A stretch of DNA of 9,876 bases from a virus (Duplodnaviria > Heunggongvirae > Uroviricota > Caudoviricetes), in IMG/VR virus record IMGVR_UViG_2724679236_000015, one strand, 5' to 3'. A program made the translations under genes and the position numbers. Below the pieces are notes generated by a model. It was not told the origin of the DNA. It ran no database searches and saw only the letters and a list, made by a program, of their open reading frames with translations. Position 1 is the first letter of the stretch. Each line of letters starts with the position of its first letter. Below, one piece after another: positions 1 through 9,876 of this stretch.

Positions 1-258
1 AAAATTGCAATATGTGGTGGACCCATACATCTCCTTGCCTTTCGGCACGTAAGAGGCTAACCTAGATTTGCCGTTCATAGATTGAGCCTCAGATTAATGT
101 TAAGCGTCTTGCAGGACGCGTAATGTTAACTGGGGCTTTTCTCTATCTGCCTTTTGGTATTCATGCCTGAGACAGATAGCCTCAAGCACCCGCAGCAATT
201 CTACTTAACTCCCGTAACCTCGCCAATATGAAATCAATCAGAAAGGTGATCCATAAAA

Positions 259-648
259 TCACTGCTTCTCTTCTTTACCGTAGTGGAGTTGACCAATTTT
301 GATAAGAGGGCGTCCCTGAGATTTGCGGTGTAGATTGGTATCGCGCAGAGAATGCACACAGCCACAATATTCCTGCTGATAGAATTGTTCGCGTTTGCTG
401 ATTTCAATCATGCGGGACAAGCCCCCCCCCTGCTTGCGCCAGTTATAATCCCAGTACACAATTCCCGGATAATGTGCGACAGCTCGCCGTCCGCAGTCGT
501 TAACCTGCTGCATATTTTTCCAGCGTGAAATGCCCAGTGAACTGCTGATCACACTGAAACCATTTTCAGCGGCGTACAGCGCTGTCCGCTCAAAACGCAT
601 GTCAAAACACATAGTACAACGCCTCCCACGTTCGGTCTCCCATTCCAT
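259..648 (-). CDS. QueH/DUF208-family (epoxyqueuosine reductase-like) protein, C-terminal portion; gene appears frame-split, with the N-terminal part at 702-845
   Basis: Translation contains [14 protein letters not shown]...[14 protein letters not shown]...YCGC, which I recognise as the C-terminal signature of DUF208/QueH. The frame stays open upstream to a stop at 751-753 with no alternative start codon, so the ATG at 648 is either an internal restart or the gene is disrupted. Confidence 0.55.
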
Positions 649-701
649 TCCTTTGGCTCGCTCAAACCAGTTGTCAGTGTCGTAATCAGCATCGATAAAC
701 G

Positions 702-845
702 CTACACCGTGTTGTTCTCGATTCCTGAGGCCTGAAGAGTCTCCATCACTTCACCGGAACATGGTGCACAACAAGAGTGTAATAGTAGTTTGTTTGCCCC
801 GTTTGGGAGCTCCAACTTAGGACGTTTGAAATCAGCAACTGTCAT
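702..845 (-). pseudogene. N-terminal fragment of the QueH/DUF208-like gene, in a different frame from the C-terminal ORF
   Basis: Minus-strand ORF ATG(845) to TAG(704-702) translates to [58 protein letters not shown] is the N-terminal Fe-S cysteine motif of QueH. Its frame differs from the 259-648 ORF; the two overlap at about 702-750. Confidence 0.5.
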
Positions 846-1116
846 AAATGTTTACGTCGGGGTAATGAAACTTGCAAGGAGTGTAGCATCAGAGTGTACT
901 GCCCCCAAAAGTTGGCAGTTAAACAAGAGGCTAGATATTTTGAGCAAAATTTCAAGATCAACTAATGCTCCTTTTTTGAACAAGCGTCCTGATTATACCA
1001 ATCAGATCGCATTACAATGCTATCTTTACTGATAAGTCAGTTGATTGTTTCGTTAAAATGCTTCTTAATACCGTAAACTTATTACTCCAGCACAGATAAC
1101 ATATAATGAAATAGCC

Positions 1117-1389
1117 ATGAAAATAGACATTAAAAATAAAAATGGGAATACACAACACCTAGACGTGTCATCGTTGATTATTACACTTAATAATGGAGAA
1201 ACTATTGAAATCACAGATGAAAACAAAAGTCGCCCAATTGATATACCTGAGGGGGTTACAGTGTGGGGAGGCCAAGCTCCCGATCAAGGAGCAAGCATAG
1301 ATCAACTAAAAAAGACAACTCGTGGCATAGGAATATATCCACTAGCCTCCAATATGGTGCACATATTCCCTTATTCTTTAAAAAAGTAA
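1117..1389 (+). CDS. Hypothetical 90-aa protein (moron-like, AT-rich, opposite strand to the surrounding operon)
   Basis: ORF sits in a visibly AT-rich island (about 1040-1520) with rare codons (ATA, CTA). A TATAAT hexamer at 1102-1107 lies 9 nt upstream of the ATG. No clear Shine-Dalgarno. No family recognised. Confidence 0.4.
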   Translation: MKIDIKNKNGNTQHLDVSSLIITLNNGETIEITDENKSRPIDIPEGVTVWGGQAPDQGASIDQLKKTTRGIGIYPLASNMVHIFPYSLKK

Positions 1390-1526
1390 AATCTTATGTA
1401 GCGTTTTAGTAGATACCAAATAAAGAGTGGAACTAAAATTTGATTTTAGCGCAGTGCCAGATGAGGCGATGGCTCTGCGCCGTAGATACACCAACTTAAA
1501 CTTGAGCTATTACATTTTGATTTTGC

Positions 1527-1949
1527 TTACCGAACAAATTTCTGGATATTTCCTCGATAAAACATCAGTACACGCTTCATCACTTCGCTCTTACGGCACT
1601 CGCTACAGATTATGTTTAGACGACTGTCGTAGCGACGTATTTCTCCGTCAGGAAATGACCAGATAAGGTCCGGATCAACCACAGCAGGTTTCTTCACCTT
1701 TGCCCTCGAGAGTTTTTTGCGGGCGTTTTGCCAGTCCTTACGCGCCTGTTCAGACGGGAATAACCCGTAGCCGGAGTTGTATACATCGCCACTGGCAACC
1801 AGCTCTCTGGCGAGAACACTCATCAGATATCTTGTCGCACCTGTTTTAGCTTCCAGTTGCCGTAACGTCTCTCGACCGCTCTGGCGCACGAGTTCCACCA
1901 CCTGCCCTTTAATTTTTTCTCGCTCTTCTTGTGTAAATACTTTTGCCAC
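1527..1949 (-). CDS. Hypothetical 140-aa protein with an HTH-like segment; occupies the position of a helicase loader downstream of the O-like gene
   Basis: GTG start at 1949 preceded by a perfect AGGAGG (rc of 1954-1959). The segment TLRQLEAKTGATRYLMSVLARELVASG looks helix-turn-helix-like. A 37-nt gap separates it from the upstream O-like gene. Confidence 0.65.
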   Translation of the reverse strand: MAKVFTQEEREKIKGQVVELVRQSGRETLRQLEAKTGATRYLMSVLARELVASGDVYNSGYGLFPSEQARKDWQNARKKLSRAKVKKPAVVDPDLIWSFPDGEIRRYDSRLNIICSECRKSEVMKRVLMFYRGNIQKFVR

Positions 1950-1989
1950 AAGCCCTCCTGAAAATTACCTCATGACCCGAAATAAACAC

Positions 1990-2955
1990 TTACCCCCTGA
2001 ACCCTGGGGGAATTTCGGTATCCGGTTCAGAAATATGATTCACACAACGCTGTACAGGTGAACGCCCCAGGCGGATGACCAGTTCGTCCCATTTTTCGCG
2101 GAGCTTTGACGGGCTCATGATGTTTTTTACCCAGAATGGATCCCGCTGTACCCGCCCAAACATTTCGCAAATTTGTCTGTGAGTTCTGCCATCCAGCATC
2201 CGCATTGTGCGCACATCATTGGCCCATGCGGTCCAGTTTGGTTCTTTCGGTCGCGTGATCTCGCCATCATCGCTGGCAGCCTGCTCGTAAAGACTCACGA
2301 TTCGTCCCCAGATCCACTGTGCGCACGCCAAATCTTCCTGACTTCCCCACTGGCGTTTTTTCGCACTGAACACAACCGCATCAGGGTGCCGAGTTAAAAA
2401 ATCCTGTTCAGCCGTCTGCAGGTCCGGTTGCGAAGCTTCCGGACGAGAAGTGTTTTTATTCTCTGTAGTAATCTCTGTTGTATTCTCTGTAAGATCATCA
2501 GACCATTTTGACCCGATGACATTGGGTCGTTTTGAACCAATGGAGCGTGCCATTTTGACCTCTTCCATCGTGTCATTTTGACCTGATGGAGCGACGCATT
2601 TTGACCTGATGGATTCGCTCACTTTGCCACCATCTAAAAGCTCACTCTCGTAATTAATCGTGTAAAAATTAGTCATATCACGCTTTGATTTGTTGAGCTT
2701 TTCGCAACGCAAAAGCCCCAGCGTTTTCAGACTTGCAAATGCACGTTTTAACGTTGATTCAGACCAGAACGGAAACTGTTCCAGCCATTGTTCCGTTGTG
2801 TTATAAATCCAGCGAACCCCGTCACATTCCATACCGGAATTGGTATCTCTCAACCAGTAATGCAGCTGCTGTAACACAATGGCTTCGTTCAGACCTATTT
2901 TCATCGCCAGCTGAGTGTTAATAACCAGTGGGCGTTCAGCAAAAAGAAGACTCAT
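1990..2955 (-). CDS. Phage replication initiation protein (O-like replisome organiser)
   Basis: N-terminal region MSLLFAERPLVINTQLAMKIGLNEAIVLQQLHYWL...NFYTINYE matches what I recognise as the phage replisome-organiser N-terminal domain. Iterons are embedded in the middle of the coding sequence. The ORF track extends to a TTG at 3009 and an ATG at 2997; I prefer the ATG at 2955 (GGA-containing motif upstream, short overlap with the upstream gene), but the start is uncertain. Confidence 0.8.
   Translation of the reverse strand: MSLLFAERPLVINTQLAMKIGLNEAIVLQQLHYWLRDTNSGMECDGVRWIYNTTEQWLEQFPFWSESTLKRAFASLKTLGLLRCEKLNKSKRDMTNFYTINYESELLDGGKVSESIRSKCVAPSGQNDTMEEVKMARSIGSKRPNVIGSKWSDDLTENTTEITTENKNTSRPEASQPDLQTAEQDFLTRHPDAVVFSAKKRQWGSQEDLACAQWIWGRIVSLYEQAASDDGEITRPKEPNWTAWANDVRTMRMLDGRTHRQICEMFGRVQRDPFWVKNIMSPSKLREKWDELVIRLGRSPVQRCVNHISEPDTEIPPGFRG
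2449..2635. repeat. Putative origin of replication: six about-23-bp iterons (core CATTTTGACC) plus an adjacent AT-rich segment with three TCTCTGT repeats, inside the O-like gene
   Basis: Direct repeats start at 2504, 2528, 2551, 2574, 2597 and 2620 (the last degenerate), spaced 23-24 bp. The AT-rich stretch 2449-2500 carries TCTCTGT three times. This mirrors lambda ori lying within gene O. Confidence 0.6.
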
Positions 2956-3457
2956 AATTCCATCCGGCTTTTTGTTGATATTGCTGACAATACGCATGCT
3001 TGAAAGCAATAGCTTTTTCTATAAGCTCGTCAGTCTCACGCTCCACAACAGCGGGATCTGCCAAAAGCAGACCGGACTCCACCACATCGCCATATTCTTT
3101 GTTTAACCCGGCGATCATGTACGTAATGCTTTTTCCGTCAGTAATTTCACGATACAACCTGAAATCACTTATCCGGATAGCCTCCATAATTGCCGGAATC
3201 AGCGCCGTGAATTTTTCCCGCTTATCCCTGGTATCAATAGCTTTCCAGCGTTCGAATATCTTCACCCGGTTGACGCCCAGCGCCCGTTGCTCAACCGCGC
3301 CATCATCAAACGTGACGCGTTGAACATCGATGTTCGGGCGTTCTTTCAGAGCCCAGAATGCTTCCGTGATTAATATCGTCGCCTGCTCCTGTGTCATTCC
3401 TGGTCGGCATACCCAGGCATCCAGAGCCTCACAAACATGTTCAGGGGTGATTTTCAT
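2936..3457 (-). CDS. YdaT-like protein (CII functional analog family of Rac/CP-933P-type prophages)
   Basis: 173-aa ORF immediately downstream of the cro-like gene, with a 17-nt overlap, in the cII position of the lambdoid map. The family assignment is from my recollection of YdaT sequences, not a search. Confidence 0.55.
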   Translation of the reverse strand: MKITPEHVCEALDAWVCRPGMTQEQATILITEAFWALKERPNIDVQRVTFDDGAVEQRALGVNRVKIFERWKAIDTRDKREKFTALIPAIMEAIRISDFRLYREITDGKSITYMIAGLNKEYGDVVESGLLLADPAVVERETDELIEKAIAFKHAYCQQYQQKAGWNYESSFC

Positions 3458-3671
3458 TGTTCAACCGCCCCGCCCGCTTTGCCTTACGATATTCGTCATA
3501 AACTTTGGGGTCGTACTGAAGTTCCCCGCCGGATGCATCTTGCAGGCGCATCGCGCGACCTTCAGGTACTAGCTCCCCTTTCCAGCTATAAAGCGAAGCC
3601 AAACGAATACCAGCAGCTTGTGCAAGTTTTGTTTTTGAACCGAAATACAAAAGTGCGTCAGTTTTAAGCAT
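3441..3671 (-). CDS. dicC: Cro-like transcriptional regulator DicC
   Basis: 76-aa protein MLKTDALLYFGSKTKLAQAAGIRLASLYSW... closely matches my recollection of E. coli DicC. AAGGTG Shine-Dalgarno 6 nt upstream of the ATG. Divergent from the dicA-like gene. Confidence 0.75.
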   Translation of the reverse strand: MLKTDALLYFGSKTKLAQAAGIRLASLYSWKGELVPEGRAMRLQDASGGELQYDPKVYDEYRKAKRAGRLNNENHP

Positions 3672-3754: not shown

Positions 3755-4162
3755 ATGGATACAAAAAATTTAACCATTGGCGAACGCATTAGATATCGCC
3801 GAAAAAACCTCAAATACACCCAAAGGTCTCTTGCTAAAGCCCTGAAAATTTCTCATGTATCGGTTTCACAATGGGAACGGGATGATAGCGAACCTACAGG
3901 AAAGAATCTTTTTGCCCTCAGCAAAGTACTGCAGTGCTCGCCAACATGGATTCTATTTGGCGATGAAGACAAGCAGCCATCACCACCTATTGAGGAGCCA
4001 GTTGCTCTATCCCCCAAAGAACATGAGCTCCTTGAGCTTTTTAATGCATTGCCTGAATCAGAACAGGATGCTCAGCTCACCGAGATGCGCGCCCGAGTAA
4101 AAAATTTCAACAAACTCTTTGAAGAGTTATTAAAAGCCCGTCAACGAACAAACAAAAGATAA
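3755..4162 (+). CDS. dicA: XRE-family HTH repressor DicA (CI-like immunity repressor)
   Basis: 135-aa protein MDTKNLTIGERIRYRRKNLKYTQRSLAKALKISHVSVSQWERDDSEPTGKNLFALSKVL... closely matches my recollection of E. coli DicA (same length, classic HTH). Confidence 0.85.
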   Translation: MDTKNLTIGERIRYRRKNLKYTQRSLAKALKISHVSVSQWERDDSEPTGKNLFALSKVLQCSPTWILFGDEDKQPSPPIEEPVALSPKEHELLELFNALPESEQDAQLTEMRARVKNFNKLFEELLKARQRTNKR

Positions 4163-5302: not shown

Positions 5303-5358
5303 TTTCTGGTGACGTTTGGCGGCATCTGTTTGCCCATGAACTGATGTCCGCCCTTTTT
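5303..5358 (+). ncRNA. dicF: DicF-like small RNA (cell-division inhibitor sRNA of the dicB operon)
   Basis: TTTCTGGTGACGTTTGGCGG matches the DicF 5' region as I recall it, followed by a GGCGGCATC...GATGtCCGCC hairpin and T5 (5354-5358). Located upstream of dicB as in Qin. Confidence 0.7.
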
Positions 5359-5527
5359 AAAGTGAATTTTGTGATGCGGTGAATGCGGCTAAGCGCACGC
5401 GGAACAGTTAAAGCTAAAAACAGTGTTATGGGTGGATTCTCTGTATCCGGCGTTAATTGTTAACTGGTTAACGTCACCTGGAGGCACCAGGCACCGCATC
5501 ACAAAATTCATTGTTGAGGACGCGATA

Positions 5528-5716
5528 ATGGAAACGTTATTACCAAACGTTAATACGTCTGAAGGTTGTTTTGAAATTGGTGTCACTATCAGCAATCAGA
5601 TATTTACTGAAGATGCCATTAATAAAAGAAAACACGAACAGGAACTGCTAAATAAAATATGCATTGTTTCGATGCTGGCCCGTTTACGTCTGATGCAAAC
5701 AGGATGCAGGCAATGA
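5528..5716 (+). CDS. dicB: Cell-division inhibitor DicB
   Basis: 62-aa protein METLLPNVNTSEGCFEIGVTISNQIFTEDAINKRKHEQELLNKICIVSMLARLRLMQTGCRQ; GAGGA Shine-Dalgarno 8 nt upstream. The ORF-track start at 5423 is an unsupported upstream extension. Confidence 0.85.
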   Translation: METLLPNVNTSEGCFEIGVTISNQIFTEDAINKRKHEQELLNKICIVSMLARLRLMQTGCRQ

Positions 5717-5995: not shown

Positions 5996-8455
5996 ATGAG
6001 TAAAGTCTTTATTTGCGCCGCCATTCCGGACGAACAGGCAACAGCAGAAGGCGCTAAACCTGTGGCCACTGCCATTGAAGCAGGCGACGAACGCCGGGCA
6101 AGAGCCAAATTTAGCTGGTTATTTCTGGAACAATACCCGGAAGCTCAGGACTGTGCTTATAAATTTCTTGTCTGCGAGGATAAACCCGGCATGGCCCGCC
6201 CTGCTCTCGATTCCTGGGATTCCGAATATATGCAGGAAAACCGCTGGAATGAGGAGTCGGCTTCCTTTGTTCCGGTCGACCCTGAACCGGACGCAGAAAT
6301 TGTTAACTTTAATCAGTTATCTGACGACAAGCGGGCTGCTGTCCTTGTCAGGTTCGGTACACATGAAAACATCACCGTGGATATGGTCATCAATGCAAGC
6401 GGGCTTCTCGGCGATGACGAGATGACGACTTTTGATGGACACCTCGCTGAAGCAATTATCCGGACCAGAGAAATTAACGCCATGTATCCAGAGCGTCAGA
6501 TTGAGTACATCAACGATGCCAGACGTGATTTAAAACCAACAGCCAAATGGCCCGACGTTCAGGCGTATTTTCTCGAACGTAAAAAACGCATGGAAAAGGA
6601 GCGCAAAGAAGGTGGCGCATATAATTCCGTCGTCGATCTTGCCCGCGCCAGAGTCAACCGGCAAGGCACTGAAAACTCTGCAGGAAAAACTGGCTCCGTA
6701 ACTGCTGTCATTCGTCGCGAATACAGGCAGACATGGAAAACACTGGATGACGAACTGGCCTACGCTCTCTGGCCTGGTGATGTGGATGCCGGAAACATTG
6801 ACGGCAGCATCCATCGCTGGGCAAAAAATGAAGTTATCGACAACGACCGCGAAGACTGGAAGCGTATCTCGGCATCAATGCGCAAACAGCCTGATGCCCT
6901 TCGCTACGACCGCCAGACTATTTTTGGCCTTGTCCGTGAACGTCCGATCGACATTCACAAAGACCCTGTGGCACTGAACAAATACATTACTGAATACCTG
7001 ACGACAAAAGGCGTGTTTGAAGATGAAGAAACGGATCAGAGTCCTGCTGATGTTCTCCGGTCGTCAGCAACACAAACTGATGCAGTGGAAACAGAAGTAT
7101 CTGGCACCCAAAAAAATGAAAGCGCACTGGAAGCTGAACCATCTGTAGAGCGTGAAGGACCGTTCTACTTCCTCTTTACCGATAAGGACGGCGAAAAATA
7201 CGGTCGCGCAAACAAACTGTCTGGTCTGAATAAGGCGCTGGCTGCCGGGGCTACTGAAATCACCAAAGAAGAATACGTCGCCCGAAAAAATGGCACATAC
7301 ACAGGCTTACCGCAAAATACCAATGCCGCACAAAACTCTGAACAACCAGAGCCGGTAAAAGTTAACACGGTCGAAACAAATAAAAAAATGGAGACAGAAA
7401 ATCTGCCTGATGCCGACAAAGTGCTTACTGCATCACGTGGTGAATTTGTTGAAGGAATTAGCGACCCGAATGATCCGAAGTGGGTTGAGGGGATCCAGAC
7501 TCGCGATTCTGTGTACCAGAATCAGCAAGAAATGGAACAGAACGACCAGAAAGCGGAACAAAACAGCCCGGATGCGCAACAAAACGGGCCAGAAGTGCAA
7601 CAGTCAGAGCCAACAGCACAACAGGAGACTGAAAAAAGCTGCAATACTTGCGGCCGGACTGGCGGTGGAAAATGTCCGGACTGCGGGCCTGTTATGGGTA
7701 ACACAACATATCAGGAAACATTCGATGAAGAAAATCTGGCTGAAAAAGATTCGGAGAAAATGGAAAGCACTGCGCATTCTCGTAAGGAGAGCGCTGGTGA
7801 CGCTCAGCATGGCAATAGCAGTGATGAAACTGGCGAGACGGCAAATCCCCTAATTCCGGTGAACAGTCATCATAAATACATATCCACCAGCAACAGAATG
7901 TGGACTCATATGATGATCGACCTGGAAACCATGGGAAAAAATCCTGATGCTGCAGTTATCTCAATAGGTGCAATATTTTTCGATCCGCAAACCGGAGATA
8001 TTGGGCCAGAATTCAGTAAGACCATCGATCTGGATACTGCTGGCGGTGTCATTGACAGGGACACCATTAAGTGGTGGCTGAAGCAATCGCGCGAAGCGCA
8101 GTCTGCCATTCTGGCTGATGAAATCCCGTTAGATGATGCACTGTTGCAATTACGGGAATTTATCGACGAAAACTCTGGTGAGTTTTTTGTTCAGGTCTGG
8201 GGCAACGGAACCAGTTTCGACAACGTAATTTTACGCCGTTCATACGAACGACAGGGAATCCCCTGCCCGTGGCACTACTGCAATGATCGCGATGTTCGCA
8301 CGATCGTTGAACTGGGAGGAGCCATGGACTTCGATGCCAGAACGGCTATTCCATTCGAAGGCGAGCGCCACAATGCACTTGATGACGCCCGTTACCAGGC
8401 AAAATACGTTTCAGCTATCTGGCAAAAACTGCTCCCAAGTCAGGCTGATTTTTAA
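5996..8455 (+). CDS. Prophage exonuclease: RecE-N-terminal/YdfE-like region fused to a C-terminal DEDDh (DnaQ-like) 3'-5' exonuclease domain
   Basis: 819-aa ORF with GAGG Shine-Dalgarno 10 nt upstream. The C-terminal roughly 190 aa carry DEDDh motifs: IDLETMG (Exo I), VWGNGTSFDNVIL (Exo II), HNALDDARY (Exo III). The segment ASRGEFVEGISDPNDPKWVEGIQTRDSVYQNQ resembles the RecE N-terminal region as I recall it. A C-x2-C-x9-C-x2-C motif (CNTCGRTGGGKCPDC) sits in an acidic, Q-rich linker. Confidence 0.85.
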   Translation: MSKVFICAAIPDEQATAEGAKPVATAIEAGDERRARAKFSWLFLEQYPEAQDCAYKFLVCEDKPGMARPALDSWDSEYMQENRWNEESASFVPVDPEPDAEIVNFNQLSDDKRAAVLVRFGTHENITVDMVINASGLLGDDEMTTFDGHLAEAIIRTREINAMYPERQIEYINDARRDLKPTAKWPDVQAYFLERKKRMEKERKEGGAYNSVVDLARARVNRQGTENSAGKTGSVTAVIRREYRQTWKTLDDELAYALWPGDVDAGNIDGSIHRWAKNEVIDNDREDWKRISASMRKQPDALRYDRQTIFGLVRERPIDIHKDPVALNKYITEYLTTKGVFEDEETDQSPADVLRSSATQTDAVETEVSGTQKNESALEAEPSVEREGPFYFLFTDKDGEKYGRANKLSGLNKALAAGATEITKEEYVARKNGTYTGLPQNTNAAQNSEQPEPVKVNTVETNKKMETENLPDADKVLTASRGEFVEGISDPNDPKWVEGIQTRDSVYQNQQEMEQNDQKAEQNSPDAQQNGPEVQQSEPTAQQETEKSCNTCGRTGGGKCPDCGPVMGNTTYQETFDEENLAEKDSEKMESTAHSRKESAGDAQHGNSSDETGETANPLIPVNSHHKYISTSNRMWTHMMIDLETMGKNPDAAVISIGAIFFDPQTGDIGPEFSKTIDLDTAGGVIDRDTIKWWLKQSREAQSAILADEIPLDDALLQLREFIDENSGEFFVQVWGNGTSFDNVILRRSYERQGIPCPWHYCNDRDVRTIVELGGAMDFDARTAIPFEGERHNALDDARYQAKYVSAIWQKLLPSQADF

Positions 8456-8519: not shown

Positions 8520-8768
8520 ATGGCAAGACTTATTCTGCTCACTGAGTGGGCAAAAGAGGAATTCAGTGAACCGGTCCCTACTCCGGGTACATTAAGTAAA
8601 TACGCTAAAGCCGGAATGATATTTCCCCTCCCCAAAAAAGTTGGAAGACACTGGCGAGTGGATCCACGGGCTCGTTTTGTCGGAATGGTAAGCAAGCCTG
8701 AGGTGATCGCCACAGATCACCCGGCTTTAAAGAGGATACTGGAAGATGGCTCGCCCTCGAAAATATAA
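8520..8768 (+). CDS. xis: Excisionase (lambda Xis-like)
   Basis: 82-aa protein immediately upstream of int, overlapping its start by 23 nt. LTEWAKEEF...IFPLPKKVGRHWRV resembles the lambda Xis / Rac YdaQ-type winged-helix excisionases. Confidence 0.7.
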   Translation: MARLILLTEWAKEEFSEPVPTPGTLSKYAKAGMIFPLPKKVGRHWRVDPRARFVGMVSKPEVIATDHPALKRILEDGSPSKI

Positions 8769-9876
8769 AACCGATGTTCCGGGGTTATCTCCGTATTTTG
8801 ACAAAAGAAATAACAAAGTTTACTGGCGGTACAGGCATCCCATCACAGGCAAAAATCACGGACTCGGCAGTATTGACCAGAAACTGGCGGAAACCATTGC
8901 AGCAGAAGCAAACAGCCGCCTTGCCAGACAACAAATGGAACAAATGTTCAGTCTGCAGGAAAAAATTATTAGTGATACCGGCGGTTCATCAACCGTTTCA
9001 ATTTTTCTGAATAGTTACAGAAAAATTCAACAGGAAAGATATGAAAACGGAGAGATCAAACTCAACACGCTAAAACAGAAAGCGGCCCCTCTCAGAGTGT
9101 TTGATGAACGTTTTGGAGCCAGGCAATTAGATGCCATAACCGTAAAAGATATTGTATCGGTGTTGGAAGAATACAAAGCAAGAGGACATAACAGAATGGG
9201 ACAAATTTTCAGGAAAGTACTGATCGATGTTTTCCGGGAAGCTCAACAAACAGGCGATGTCCCGCCAGGGTTTAATCCGGCAGAATCGGCAAAAAAACCA
9301 CAGGTACGGGTATCAAGGCAACGACTGACCTTTGATGAGTGGATGATGATTTATAACGCAGCGGAAAAAGAGGGTTACTTTTTACAGCGTGGCATGTTGC
9401 TTGCGCTGATGACAGGGCAGCGTCTTTCGGATATTAGCAAAATGCAGTTTTCGGATATCCGGGATGGCTATCTTCATGTTGAACAGCAAAAAACGGGAGC
9501 CCGAATTGCTATCCCTCTGGCTCTGCGTTGCGATAAATTAAATCTTACCCTGGATGATGTAGTGTCATCCTGTCGCGATTGCGTTCTTAGTCCGTGGTTA
9601 TTGCACCACCATCACGCGAAAGGGACAGCTAAGCGCGGCGGAATGGTTAAACCAGCAACGTTAACTGTTGCATTTAAAAAAGCCCGGGATTCTGTAGATT
9701 ACAACTGGTGTGCCAATGGTACCCCACCCTCTTTCCATGAGCAGAGATCTTTATCAGAACGATTGTTCAGAGAACAGGGAATTGACACCAAAACTTTGCT
9801 GGGCCATTCGAATCAAAAAATGACCGATATTTACAACGACGCACGCGGTAAGGAGTGGAAAAAACTGGTCGTTTGA
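8746..9876 (+). CDS. int: Tyrosine site-specific integrase, lambda Int family
   Basis: 376 aa. Clear similarity to lambda Int as I recall it, including TGQR, KTG, FHEQRSL and LLGH...Y catalytic-region motifs (lambda: TGQR, KTG, FHELRSL, LLGH) and a YWRYRHPITGK N-terminal arm-type region. AGAGGA Shine-Dalgarno upstream. The stop codon is the last 3 nt of the window. Confidence 0.9.
   Translation: MARPRKYKTDVPGLSPYFDKRNNKVYWRYRHPITGKNHGLGSIDQKLAETIAAEANSRLARQQMEQMFSLQEKIISDTGGSSTVSIFLNSYRKIQQERYENGEIKLNTLKQKAAPLRVFDERFGARQLDAITVKDIVSVLEEYKARGHNRMGQIFRKVLIDVFREAQQTGDVPPGFNPAESAKKPQVRVSRQRLTFDEWMMIYNAAEKEGYFLQRGMLLALMTGQRLSDISKMQFSDIRDGYLHVEQQKTGARIAIPLALRCDKLNLTLDDVVSSCRDCVLSPWLLHHHHAKGTAKRGGMVKPATLTVAFKKARDSVDYNWCANGTPPSFHEQRSLSERLFREQGIDTKTLLGHSNQKMTDIYNDARGKEWKKLVV

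Follow-up and report, generated by a model that had tools for sequence, protein, structure and literature searches.

The window analysed here is a stretch of 9,876 nucleotides (IMG/VR record IMGVR_UViG_2724679236_000015; Caudoviricetes), which covers the early region of a lambdoid prophage of the Qin/Rac type. Between its replication genes and a queH gene lies an AT-rich island, whose plus strand carries an open reading frame (ORF) for a protein of 90 amino acids. A first-pass annotation, made from the letters of the window alone, had taken this island for a horizontally acquired moron, had suggested a short-leader or leaderless transcript for its gene, and had considered a function in exclusion, defence or host modulation. 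We show that the ORF is a real gene under strong purifying selection; it belongs to an unnamed and very small family, which occurs in Enterobacterales only. The island itself is probably a moron, and in the following we present the evidence for the gene, the contexts in which its relatives are found, and its expression signals, before the competing explanations are weighed. All features with coordinates are listed in Table 1.

The island and the evidence for a gene

The base composition of the island deviates clearly from that of its surroundings. The GC content of positions 1040-1526 is 0.363, compared to a mean of 0.463 (standard deviation 0.038) for windows of the same size taken over all 9876 bases; 1.9% of these windows are as low in GC, and all of them overlap the region. 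The island is the part of the window with the lowest GC content, and its 200-nt minimum of 0.305 is found at 1001-1200. Codon usage is shifted as well: the GC content at third codon positions (GC3) of the ORF is 0.297, versus 0.38-0.53 in the neighbouring genes, and rare codons of E. coli (AGA, AGG, ATA, CTA, CGA, CGG, GGA, and CCC were counted) make up 15.4% of the ORF, versus 4.6-9.2% in every neighbour but xis. These values are in agreement with the AT-rich, rare-codon island noted in the first-pass annotation; so is the orientation of the ORF, which is opposite to that of the flanking DUF977, O-like, and queH genes, all of which lie on the minus strand.

For the comparison with nine homologous coding sequences (CDSs), the method of Nei and Gojobori gave pairwise ratios of nonsynonymous to synonymous substitution rates (dN/dS) between 0.07 and 0.18, with synonymous sites near saturation. 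Codon substitution across homologues thus bears the signal of a coding sequence, as had been assumed. In a large protein collection, 14 clusters with 63-99% identity have start, length, and end in common. At the DNA level, the similarity to distant homologues is limited to the CDS or extends at most about 90 nt beyond its start. Between the window and its E. coli copy, which RefSeq labels hypothetical protein WP_000686865.1, the CDS differs by four nonsynonymous and seven synonymous substitutions, where the neutral expectation is about 77% nonsynonymous changes (binomial p = 0.005). For the antisense ORFs and the other short ORFs of the island, no conservation was found in the window.

The extent of the island follows from a comparison with an empty site. 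The island is missing from a related prophage in E. coli N54, where 174 bp separate DUF977 from queH; 653 bp of the window (895-1547) stand in place of an unrelated N54 spacer of 149 bp. Measured against the empty site, the island is slightly wider than the tract 1040-1526 first delimited. The phages HannyBb and PhiR42_1 possess the same cI-cro-cII-O-DUF977 module, which is followed by a methyltransferase gene on the same strand, and they also lack the island; in another E. coli prophage, the same spot is occupied by IS150. The N54 spacer, the methyltransferase gene of the two phages, and IS150 indicate that the position is a variable slot. Two properties of a moron are found here, namely a location between genes that are adjacent in a relative and a composition distinct from that of the surrounding phage genes. 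Together with the purifying selection and the recurrence of the cassette in other prophages described below, they support the proposal of a horizontally acquired moron.

The ends of the island were examined for terminal repeats and target duplications, but only matches of 11-19 nt turned up, which are probably due to chance. Near the 894/1548 junctions, 891-901 and 1566-1576 form an imperfect inverted repeat (11 nt, 91%), and near the breakpoints, 922-940 and 1533-1551 form a direct repeat pair (19 nt, 74%), which is again probably accidental. The absence of convincing terminal repeats fits mosaic recombination rather than transposition.

Among 5426 complete E. coli genomes, 43 contain the island DNA, with about 96% identity and always in the same context; a query spanning 900-1700, which includes flanking DUF977 DNA, was matched in 2597 of these genomes. 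The ORF is intact in Escherichia albertii (64 collection blocks) and in 42-43 E. coli genomes. The exact 90-residue protein is on record from E. albertii, where the carrier prophage adjoins yccA and tusE and is 98% identical to positions 1-3578 of the window.

Table 1. Features of the island and of the surrounding prophage region. Positions refer to the window; a dot marks features without strand.
Feature	Position	Strand	Remarks
queH, left flank	259-845	-	Two ORFs, 702-845 and 259-648; Pfam PF02677 in both fragments
Island relative to the empty site	895-1547	.	653 bp; includes the last ~7 DUF977 codons; homology to E. coli N54 (L022) stops at 894 and resumes at 1548
5' region travelling with the gene (putative promoter and 5' untranslated region)	1027-1116	+	Alignable with Citrobacter L007 from -91 nt
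TAATA box, invariant	1066-1070	+	TAATAC here (1066-1071), TAATAT in most relatives
Candidate -35 element TTATTA	1079-1084	+	3/6 match; 17-nt spacer to TATAAT
Perfect -10 hexamer TATAAT, lineage-specific	1102-1107	+	TACCAG or TACAAG in relatives
Mini-ORF ATG-AAA-TAG	1106-1114	+	Ends 2 nt before the main ATG; at the position of the relatives' GAGG
CDS, 90 aa	1117-1389	+	ATG start; WP_000686865.1 in E. coli
3' region	1390-1497	+	Patches (TTTGATTTT, GATACAnCAACT) in common with cassettes associated with cdt or restriction-modification genes
GC-rich hairpin	1449-1480	.	Stem of 6+4 bp, loop of 10 nt; lies in the 137 bp that separate the ORF from the convergent DUF977; plus strand without a U-run next to it
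DUF977/Ren-like gene ('LygF'), right flank	1527-1949	-	Final gene of the replication module; Pfam PF06163, 2.5e-28; phrog_142, 2e-46
O-like replication initiator	1990-3009	-	
YdaT-like gene	2936-3457	-	
cro/DicC-like gene	3441-3671	-	
DicA/cI-like repressor	3755-4162	+	135 aa
DicF and DicB	~5304-5716		
YdfE/RecE-like exonuclease	5996-8455		819 aa
xis, DUF4224-type	8520-8768		
Integrase	8746-9876	+	

Gene family and genomic contexts

The family comprises 38 clusters among 5.8 billion proteins, and an exhaustive search yielded 34 representatives among 1.84 billion. We inspected the surroundings of the gene at 19 loci. In lambdoid prophages it lies 3' of tail-fibre genes and directly before cdtABC (L009-L011) or, at the same place, before restriction-modification cargo (L008); in E. 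albertii, it is located beside the effector genes nleG and ospG (L012). A P2-like prophage harbours it between gpD and cdtABC (L014), and in Citrobacter it marks the edge of a P2-like prophage (L007). In addition, lone genes (L002, L003, L006, L019, L024, L025) reside in chromosomal or plasmid islets; hosts of such islets are Enterobacter, Pantoea, Mangrovibacter, Dryocola, and Scandinavium. Plasmid homologues are carried by Pantoea dispersa megaplasmids and by a C. freundii plasmid. On a K. oxytoca IncC plasmid (L025), a homologue is found directly upstream of qnrB in an ISCR1-associated segment, which was presumably captured from a Citrobacter chromosome. There (NZ_CP114306.1, 5001-6028), the family member consists of 104 residues and lies co-directionally, 68 nt upstream of the quinolone resistance gene.

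Apart from the CDS, these contexts have in common about 60-90 nt of upstream and 16-150 nt of downstream DNA. Across the 19 loci, the only recurring neighbours were of a generic or phage type (SDR, Lom, tail fibre), and none of them is common across contexts. In L009-L011 and L014, a homologue of about 91 residues is situated approximately 0.7-1.1 kb upstream of cdtA. The DNA that L009 and L014 have in common begins at about -340 nt ahead of the gene and extends to +430 nt past it, and the two loci match once more over the cdt genes; therefore, a part of the cdt cargo region that includes the homologue appears to have moved between phage types.

The protein has a mass of 9.9 kDa and an isoelectric point of 6.7, and it contains neither a transmembrane segment (the maximum 19-residue hydropathy is 0.89) nor a signal peptide; it is a beta-rich soluble protein. 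Conserved in the family are the motifs NG(E/x)T(I/L)E, PEG(V/I)xVWGG(R/K)xP, and LGxYP(L/M)AxNxxHxFP(Y/L). Two forms exist, a single domain of 88-92 residues and a tandem of two domains with about 175 residues; proteins of 160-210 residues match the query twice. Since these longer relatives hold the domain twice, we infer that the single-domain form works as a homodimer, and the protein of the window would be a dimeric cytoplasmic binding protein. A form of 174 residues has become fixed in Citrobacter, where it adjoins DUF1294 and rcnA in an islet that separates rstB from rstA. In the chromosomal loci L015-L018, this islet consists of four genes; besides the 174-residue paralogue, these are DUF1294, a NicO gene resembling rcnA, and an SDF transporter gene. 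Its flanks look like rstB and rstA, which are normally adjacent in E. coli.

Neither profile searches nor structure prediction, both of which had been proposed for the 90-residue protein, assigned it to a curated family. Pfam gave no match at E ≤ 0.1 for the protein, and the best values obtained across 29 family members (BapA_N, 0.024; Myosin_N, 0.015) were both below the cut-off. The best NCBIfam hit was a BapA prefix with 14.4 bits at a cut-off of 35, the best PHROGs hit was phrog_14215 with a non-significant E-value of 0.05, and a sequence-profile search of the PDB found nothing (best E-value 1.2, an RNase J hairpin). Residues 15-34 (LDVSSLIITLNNGETIEIT) weakly match SH3-like hairpin motifs of BapA_N, LapA, DUF2442, and myosin-N. 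These matches are sub-threshold (E-values 0.015-0.15) and confined to a hairpin of about 20 residues in unrelated folds; homology is not claimed. Matches to giant LapA/BapA adhesins, with E-values down to 4e-9 when summed over 5-19 repeats, cover only residues ~14-45 and were discarded as a resemblance of motifs. A resemblance to the swapped-hairpin barrel of MazE/AbrB was likewise rejected, because a comparison with E. coli MazE by means of hhalign gave a probability of 0.3%. AlphaFold reached a predicted local distance difference test value (pLDDT) of 54 with a shallow alignment; with 29 sequences, the best model consisted of seven strands and one helix and had a pLDDT of 86 and a predicted template modelling score (pTM) of 0.71. 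Literature searches returned nothing on this gene (WP_000686865).

Expression signals and flanking genes

The gene travels together with its 5' region. Upstream DNA is in common with L007, L008, and L012 (-61 to -64 nt), and an alignment of the closer homologues contains a conserved (G)ATAACATA block. In the window, nine nucleotides (gaaatagcc) separate TATAAT from the ATG, and no GGAG/GAGG-like Shine-Dalgarno sequence is present, as is the case for leaderless genes. By contrast, every homologue but those of the window and its E. coli twin (L001, which has GAAAT there) possesses a GAGG Shine-Dalgarno sequence 5-8 nt before the ATG. In these two exceptions, GTGAGG was converted to ATGAAA and the TACCAG or TACAAG beside it to TATAAT. 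Because all other homologues keep GAGG, both the missing Shine-Dalgarno sequence and TATAAT are derived in this lineage. The mini-ORF listed in Table 1, which arose through the same changes, overlaps TATAAT and almost duplicates the beginning of the gene (ATGAAAATAG).

If transcription starts about 7 nt after the -10 hexamer, the predicted start is at ~1113-1114, which results in a leader of 3-4 nt. With the ancestral GAGG lost, the mRNA may have no leader or a short one, may be translated without a Shine-Dalgarno sequence from a longer A/U-rich leader, or may be poorly translated. The lineage appears to have shifted away from Shine-Dalgarno-led translation. Positions 1055-1160 do not differ at all between the window and the E. 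coli copy, whereas the difference is 4% in the CDS and 8% in 895-1026; this identity is suggestive of constraint, albeit on few sites. Of the upstream signals put forward in the first-pass annotation, the TATAAT at a distance of 9 nt from the ATG and the missing Shine-Dalgarno sequence stand, whereas a promoter and the short-leader or leaderless transcript are not established, as the -35 element is weak and the motif is not more frequent than expected by chance.

Downstream of the gene, DNA is in common with L008, L012, and L014 (+82 to +153 nt). On the far side of the island, queH, the gene for epoxyqueuosine reductase, is a pseudogene in this lineage: compared with the intact gene of E. coli L001, which encodes 222 residues, it is split by a deletion of 74 bp. 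In other E. albertii assemblies of the same lineage there is no full call for queH, and in one of them an insertion sequence lies alongside. An Rfam scan of the window detected only sok (24-191), DicF, and STnc100, and nothing in 895-1547. The sok antitoxin RNA (RF01794, minus strand, 107 bits, E = 3e-24) points to a hok/sok type I toxin-antitoxin locus just left of queH; in related prophages, hokD is annotated at the corresponding place. The island does not have the make-up of a type I toxin-antitoxin or small RNA locus, as its short ORFs overlap the constrained CDS. Read from the TTG start under which it is listed, the O-like ORF shares 74 nt with the 3' end of the YdaT-like gene; its true start is probably further downstream, because other assemblies call a product of 321 residues. 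On the plus strand in the region 5304-5716, the small RNA DicF was matched with 43.5 bits, slightly below the gathering score of 48. It is followed by STnc100 (5351-5560), and a DicB-like ORF lies inside 5423-5716; this stretch is the Qin-type division-inhibition module.

Interpretation and comparison with known systems

In our opinion, the island is probably a moron in the variable DUF977/queH slot of a Qin/Rac-type prophage, and the gene is likely expressed in the lysogen as conversion or accessory cargo. A cassette of about 470 bp, composed of ~90 nt of 5' region, the 273-nt gene, and ~100 nt of 3' region inside the 653-bp replacement segment, would have recombined into the slot between DUF977/ren-like and queH; the resulting prophage would be the one seen in E. 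albertii and in approximately 1% of the complete E. coli genomes. The gene is oriented against the repressed early operon and brings an upstream region with it; hence, independent transcription in the lysogen is most likely. The protein would probably act by binding a cellular partner or ligand and not as an enzyme or a membrane protein. Family members occur at stable non-phage loci in Citrobacter and Pantoea; therefore, the function should not be phage-specific, and a host-level accessory function as lysogenic-conversion cargo is favoured over phage exclusion.

Several findings weigh against this interpretation. Perfect TATAAT hexamers are not more frequent than expected by chance in the window (five found, 3.96 expected), and the promoter scanner omits the site, since the best -35 element matches at 3/6 positions only. 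For this ORF, the promoter and terminator scans listed neither a promoter nor a canonical terminator; owing to the latter, the classical anatomy of promoter, gene, and terminator is only partly present. The loss of the Shine-Dalgarno sequence may alternatively signal lowered expression. With respect to the distribution, the family had no matches in 50,697 sequenced phage genomes and is present in just six IMG/VR contigs, five of which represent the same prophage type. As for the protein, a pLDDT of 86 was reached by one of the five AlphaFold models, the others having values of 60-66, such that the model is uncertain; the best model has no fold neighbour in PDB and BFVD, and the structure therefore lends no support to a binding role.

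A more ambitious version of the moron interpretation is conceivable, though we regard it as rather doubtful. According to this version, the gene represents an undescribed family with a novel dimer-forming fold, which was captured repeatedly as cargo and confers a new host-level phenotype on the lysogen by way of a novel binding target. The captors would be lambdoid and P2-like temperate phages, and the cargo would sit next to cdtABC, nleG/ospG, and restriction-modification genes. The lineage of the window would have exchanged a Shine-Dalgarno-led mRNA for a leaderless or short-leader one, with three G-to-A changes destroying the Shine-Dalgarno sequence and nearby changes creating a consensus -10 hexamer.

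Among the rival explanations, the best surviving one, which is nevertheless unlikely, assumes that the gene is intact but functionally decaying, that it was largely silenced when the Shine-Dalgarno sequence and the final T of the conserved TAATAT box were lost, and that TATAAT is a by-product of drift towards AT. In its favour are the GAAAT that the window and L001 have in place of GAGG, the glutamine which the window protein has at the usual arginine/lysine position of the WGGR motif, the adjoining queH pseudogene, and a TATAAT count at chance level. A decaying gene, however, should hardly be found intact in all the E. albertii blocks and E. coli genomes enumerated above; moreover, the bias towards synonymous substitutions (4 nonsynonymous, 7 synonymous; p = 0.005) arose after the shared loss of the Shine-Dalgarno sequence, and there is not a single substitution in 1055-1116.

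It is less probable still that the protein is a superinfection-exclusion or anti-phage defence factor, even though the moron slot adjoins a homologue of a Ren-like exclusion gene and the homologue in L008 adjoins restriction-modification cargo. The known exclusion proteins SieB, Cor, and HK97 gp15 are membrane-bound, whereas this protein is soluble and has no transmembrane segment. PADLOC-DB 2.0 contains no defence family that matches even at E ≤ 1, and the stable chromosomal and megaplasmid homologues in Citrobacter and Pantoea have no defence neighbours. The role in exclusion, defence, or host modulation considered in the first-pass annotation was thus not established by any PADLOC, PHROG, or Pfam match.

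We assign a very low probability to a role at the RNA level, by which the opposite-strand unit and the hairpin would disturb or end leaky transcription from the early operon ahead of queH, the nin region, and Q, in the manner of an insulator or of an oop-like antisense element. The ORF is indeed convergent with DUF977 and the replication operon, there is no intervening terminator between the ORF and DUF977, and the GC-rich hairpin in the convergent gap is fully conserved in the E. coli copy. The constraint, however, acts on the protein, and elsewhere the gene occurs in unrelated orientations and contexts, with the CDS and short flanks only in common. The hairpin is lineage-specific, being identical in the E. 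coli copy and absent from the other cassettes, and it lacks a U-run. Folding of the 3' gap on both strands revealed no terminator (the fold energy of the minus strand, with z = -0.74, is not unusual), and the island is without an Rfam match.

Marginally less probable than this is a virulence-linked cargo, for instance a toxin accessory or a factor that is secreted or translocated by the type III route. E. albertii, the host of the window, is an attaching-effacing pathogen, and homologues are found directly upstream of cdtABC in lambdoid and P2-like prophages and beside NleG/OspG genes in E. albertii. Yet cdt is separable from the gene, as the same prophage backbone carries restriction-modification genes in L008, where the homology ends 152 nt past the gene; the family also resides at non-virulence loci in Pantoea dispersa, Mangrovibacter, Dryocola, and Citrobacter, and the protein has no signal peptide. 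The only rival that is effectively excluded is an ORF arisen by chance in an AT-rich spacer between genes, to which the AT-rich, rare-codon composition and the lack of a family annotation might point, but which is contradicted by dN/dS values of 0.07-0.18, by length and ends that are conserved across genera, by a DNA similarity to distant copies limited to the CDS, and by antisense ORFs that are not conserved.

Returning to the interpretation as a moron, the gene, if expressed in lysogens, would extend by one the set of lysogenic-conversion genes in E. albertii, an emerging pathogen, and in some E. coli strains. It would also offer a handle on a family that has no database name and no resembling structure, and whose relatives lie beside cdtABC, nleG effectors, and qnrB. 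The exchange of a Shine-Dalgarno sequence for a -10 hexamer would be a compact natural example of how expression signals are remodelled in a captured gene. The understanding of prophage biology remains unchanged, because morons with unknown payloads are common: the island belongs to an ordinary class of features, and its uncharacterised payload comes from an unnamed, apparently structurally unmatched family.

A comparison with known systems places the island as follows. The mRNA of lambda cI transcribed from PRM is leaderless and expressed in the lysogen. Similarly, the ORF has a -10 hexamer at a distance of 9 nt from the AUG, a predicted leader of 3-4 nt, and no Shine-Dalgarno sequence. Note that a true leaderless mRNA starts at the A of the AUG, whereas this one would keep 3-4 nt, as deduced from the predicted start, and that the relatives of the ORF, unlike leaderless genes, use a normal Shine-Dalgarno sequence. 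The Citrobacter paralogues of 174 residues (P0018/P0049) and the P0021-like protein of ~104 residues (L025) contain the same domain with the motifs NGxTLE, PEG..VWGGR.P, and LG.YPLA.N..H.FPY; in contrast to the island ORF, they occupy stable non-phage loci (rstB-rstA/rcnA and qnrB, respectively), and they are 30-40% identical and equally uncharacterised. Accessory genes of the ren/nin slot, such as lambda ren, the DUF977 gene 'Ren-like/LygF', and the methyltransferase genes of HannyBb and PhiR42_1, take the same variable position downstream of the replication module, but the island ORF lies on the opposite strand and is unrelated in sequence. Phage morons were defined for HK97, HK022, and lambda, with lambda lom and bor and HK97 gp15 as examples. 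The island differs from classical morons in that a canonical terminator was not detected, the promoter is only weakly predicted, and 653 bp replace 149 bp instead of being cleanly inserted; its payload resembles none of the moron products characterised so far. In common with the morons of HK97, HK022, and lambda, it adds an extra gene between genes that are adjacent in relatives, has a deviant composition and its own upstream region, is oriented in a way that permits expression while the operon is repressed, and recurs in the cargo slots of unrelated prophages.

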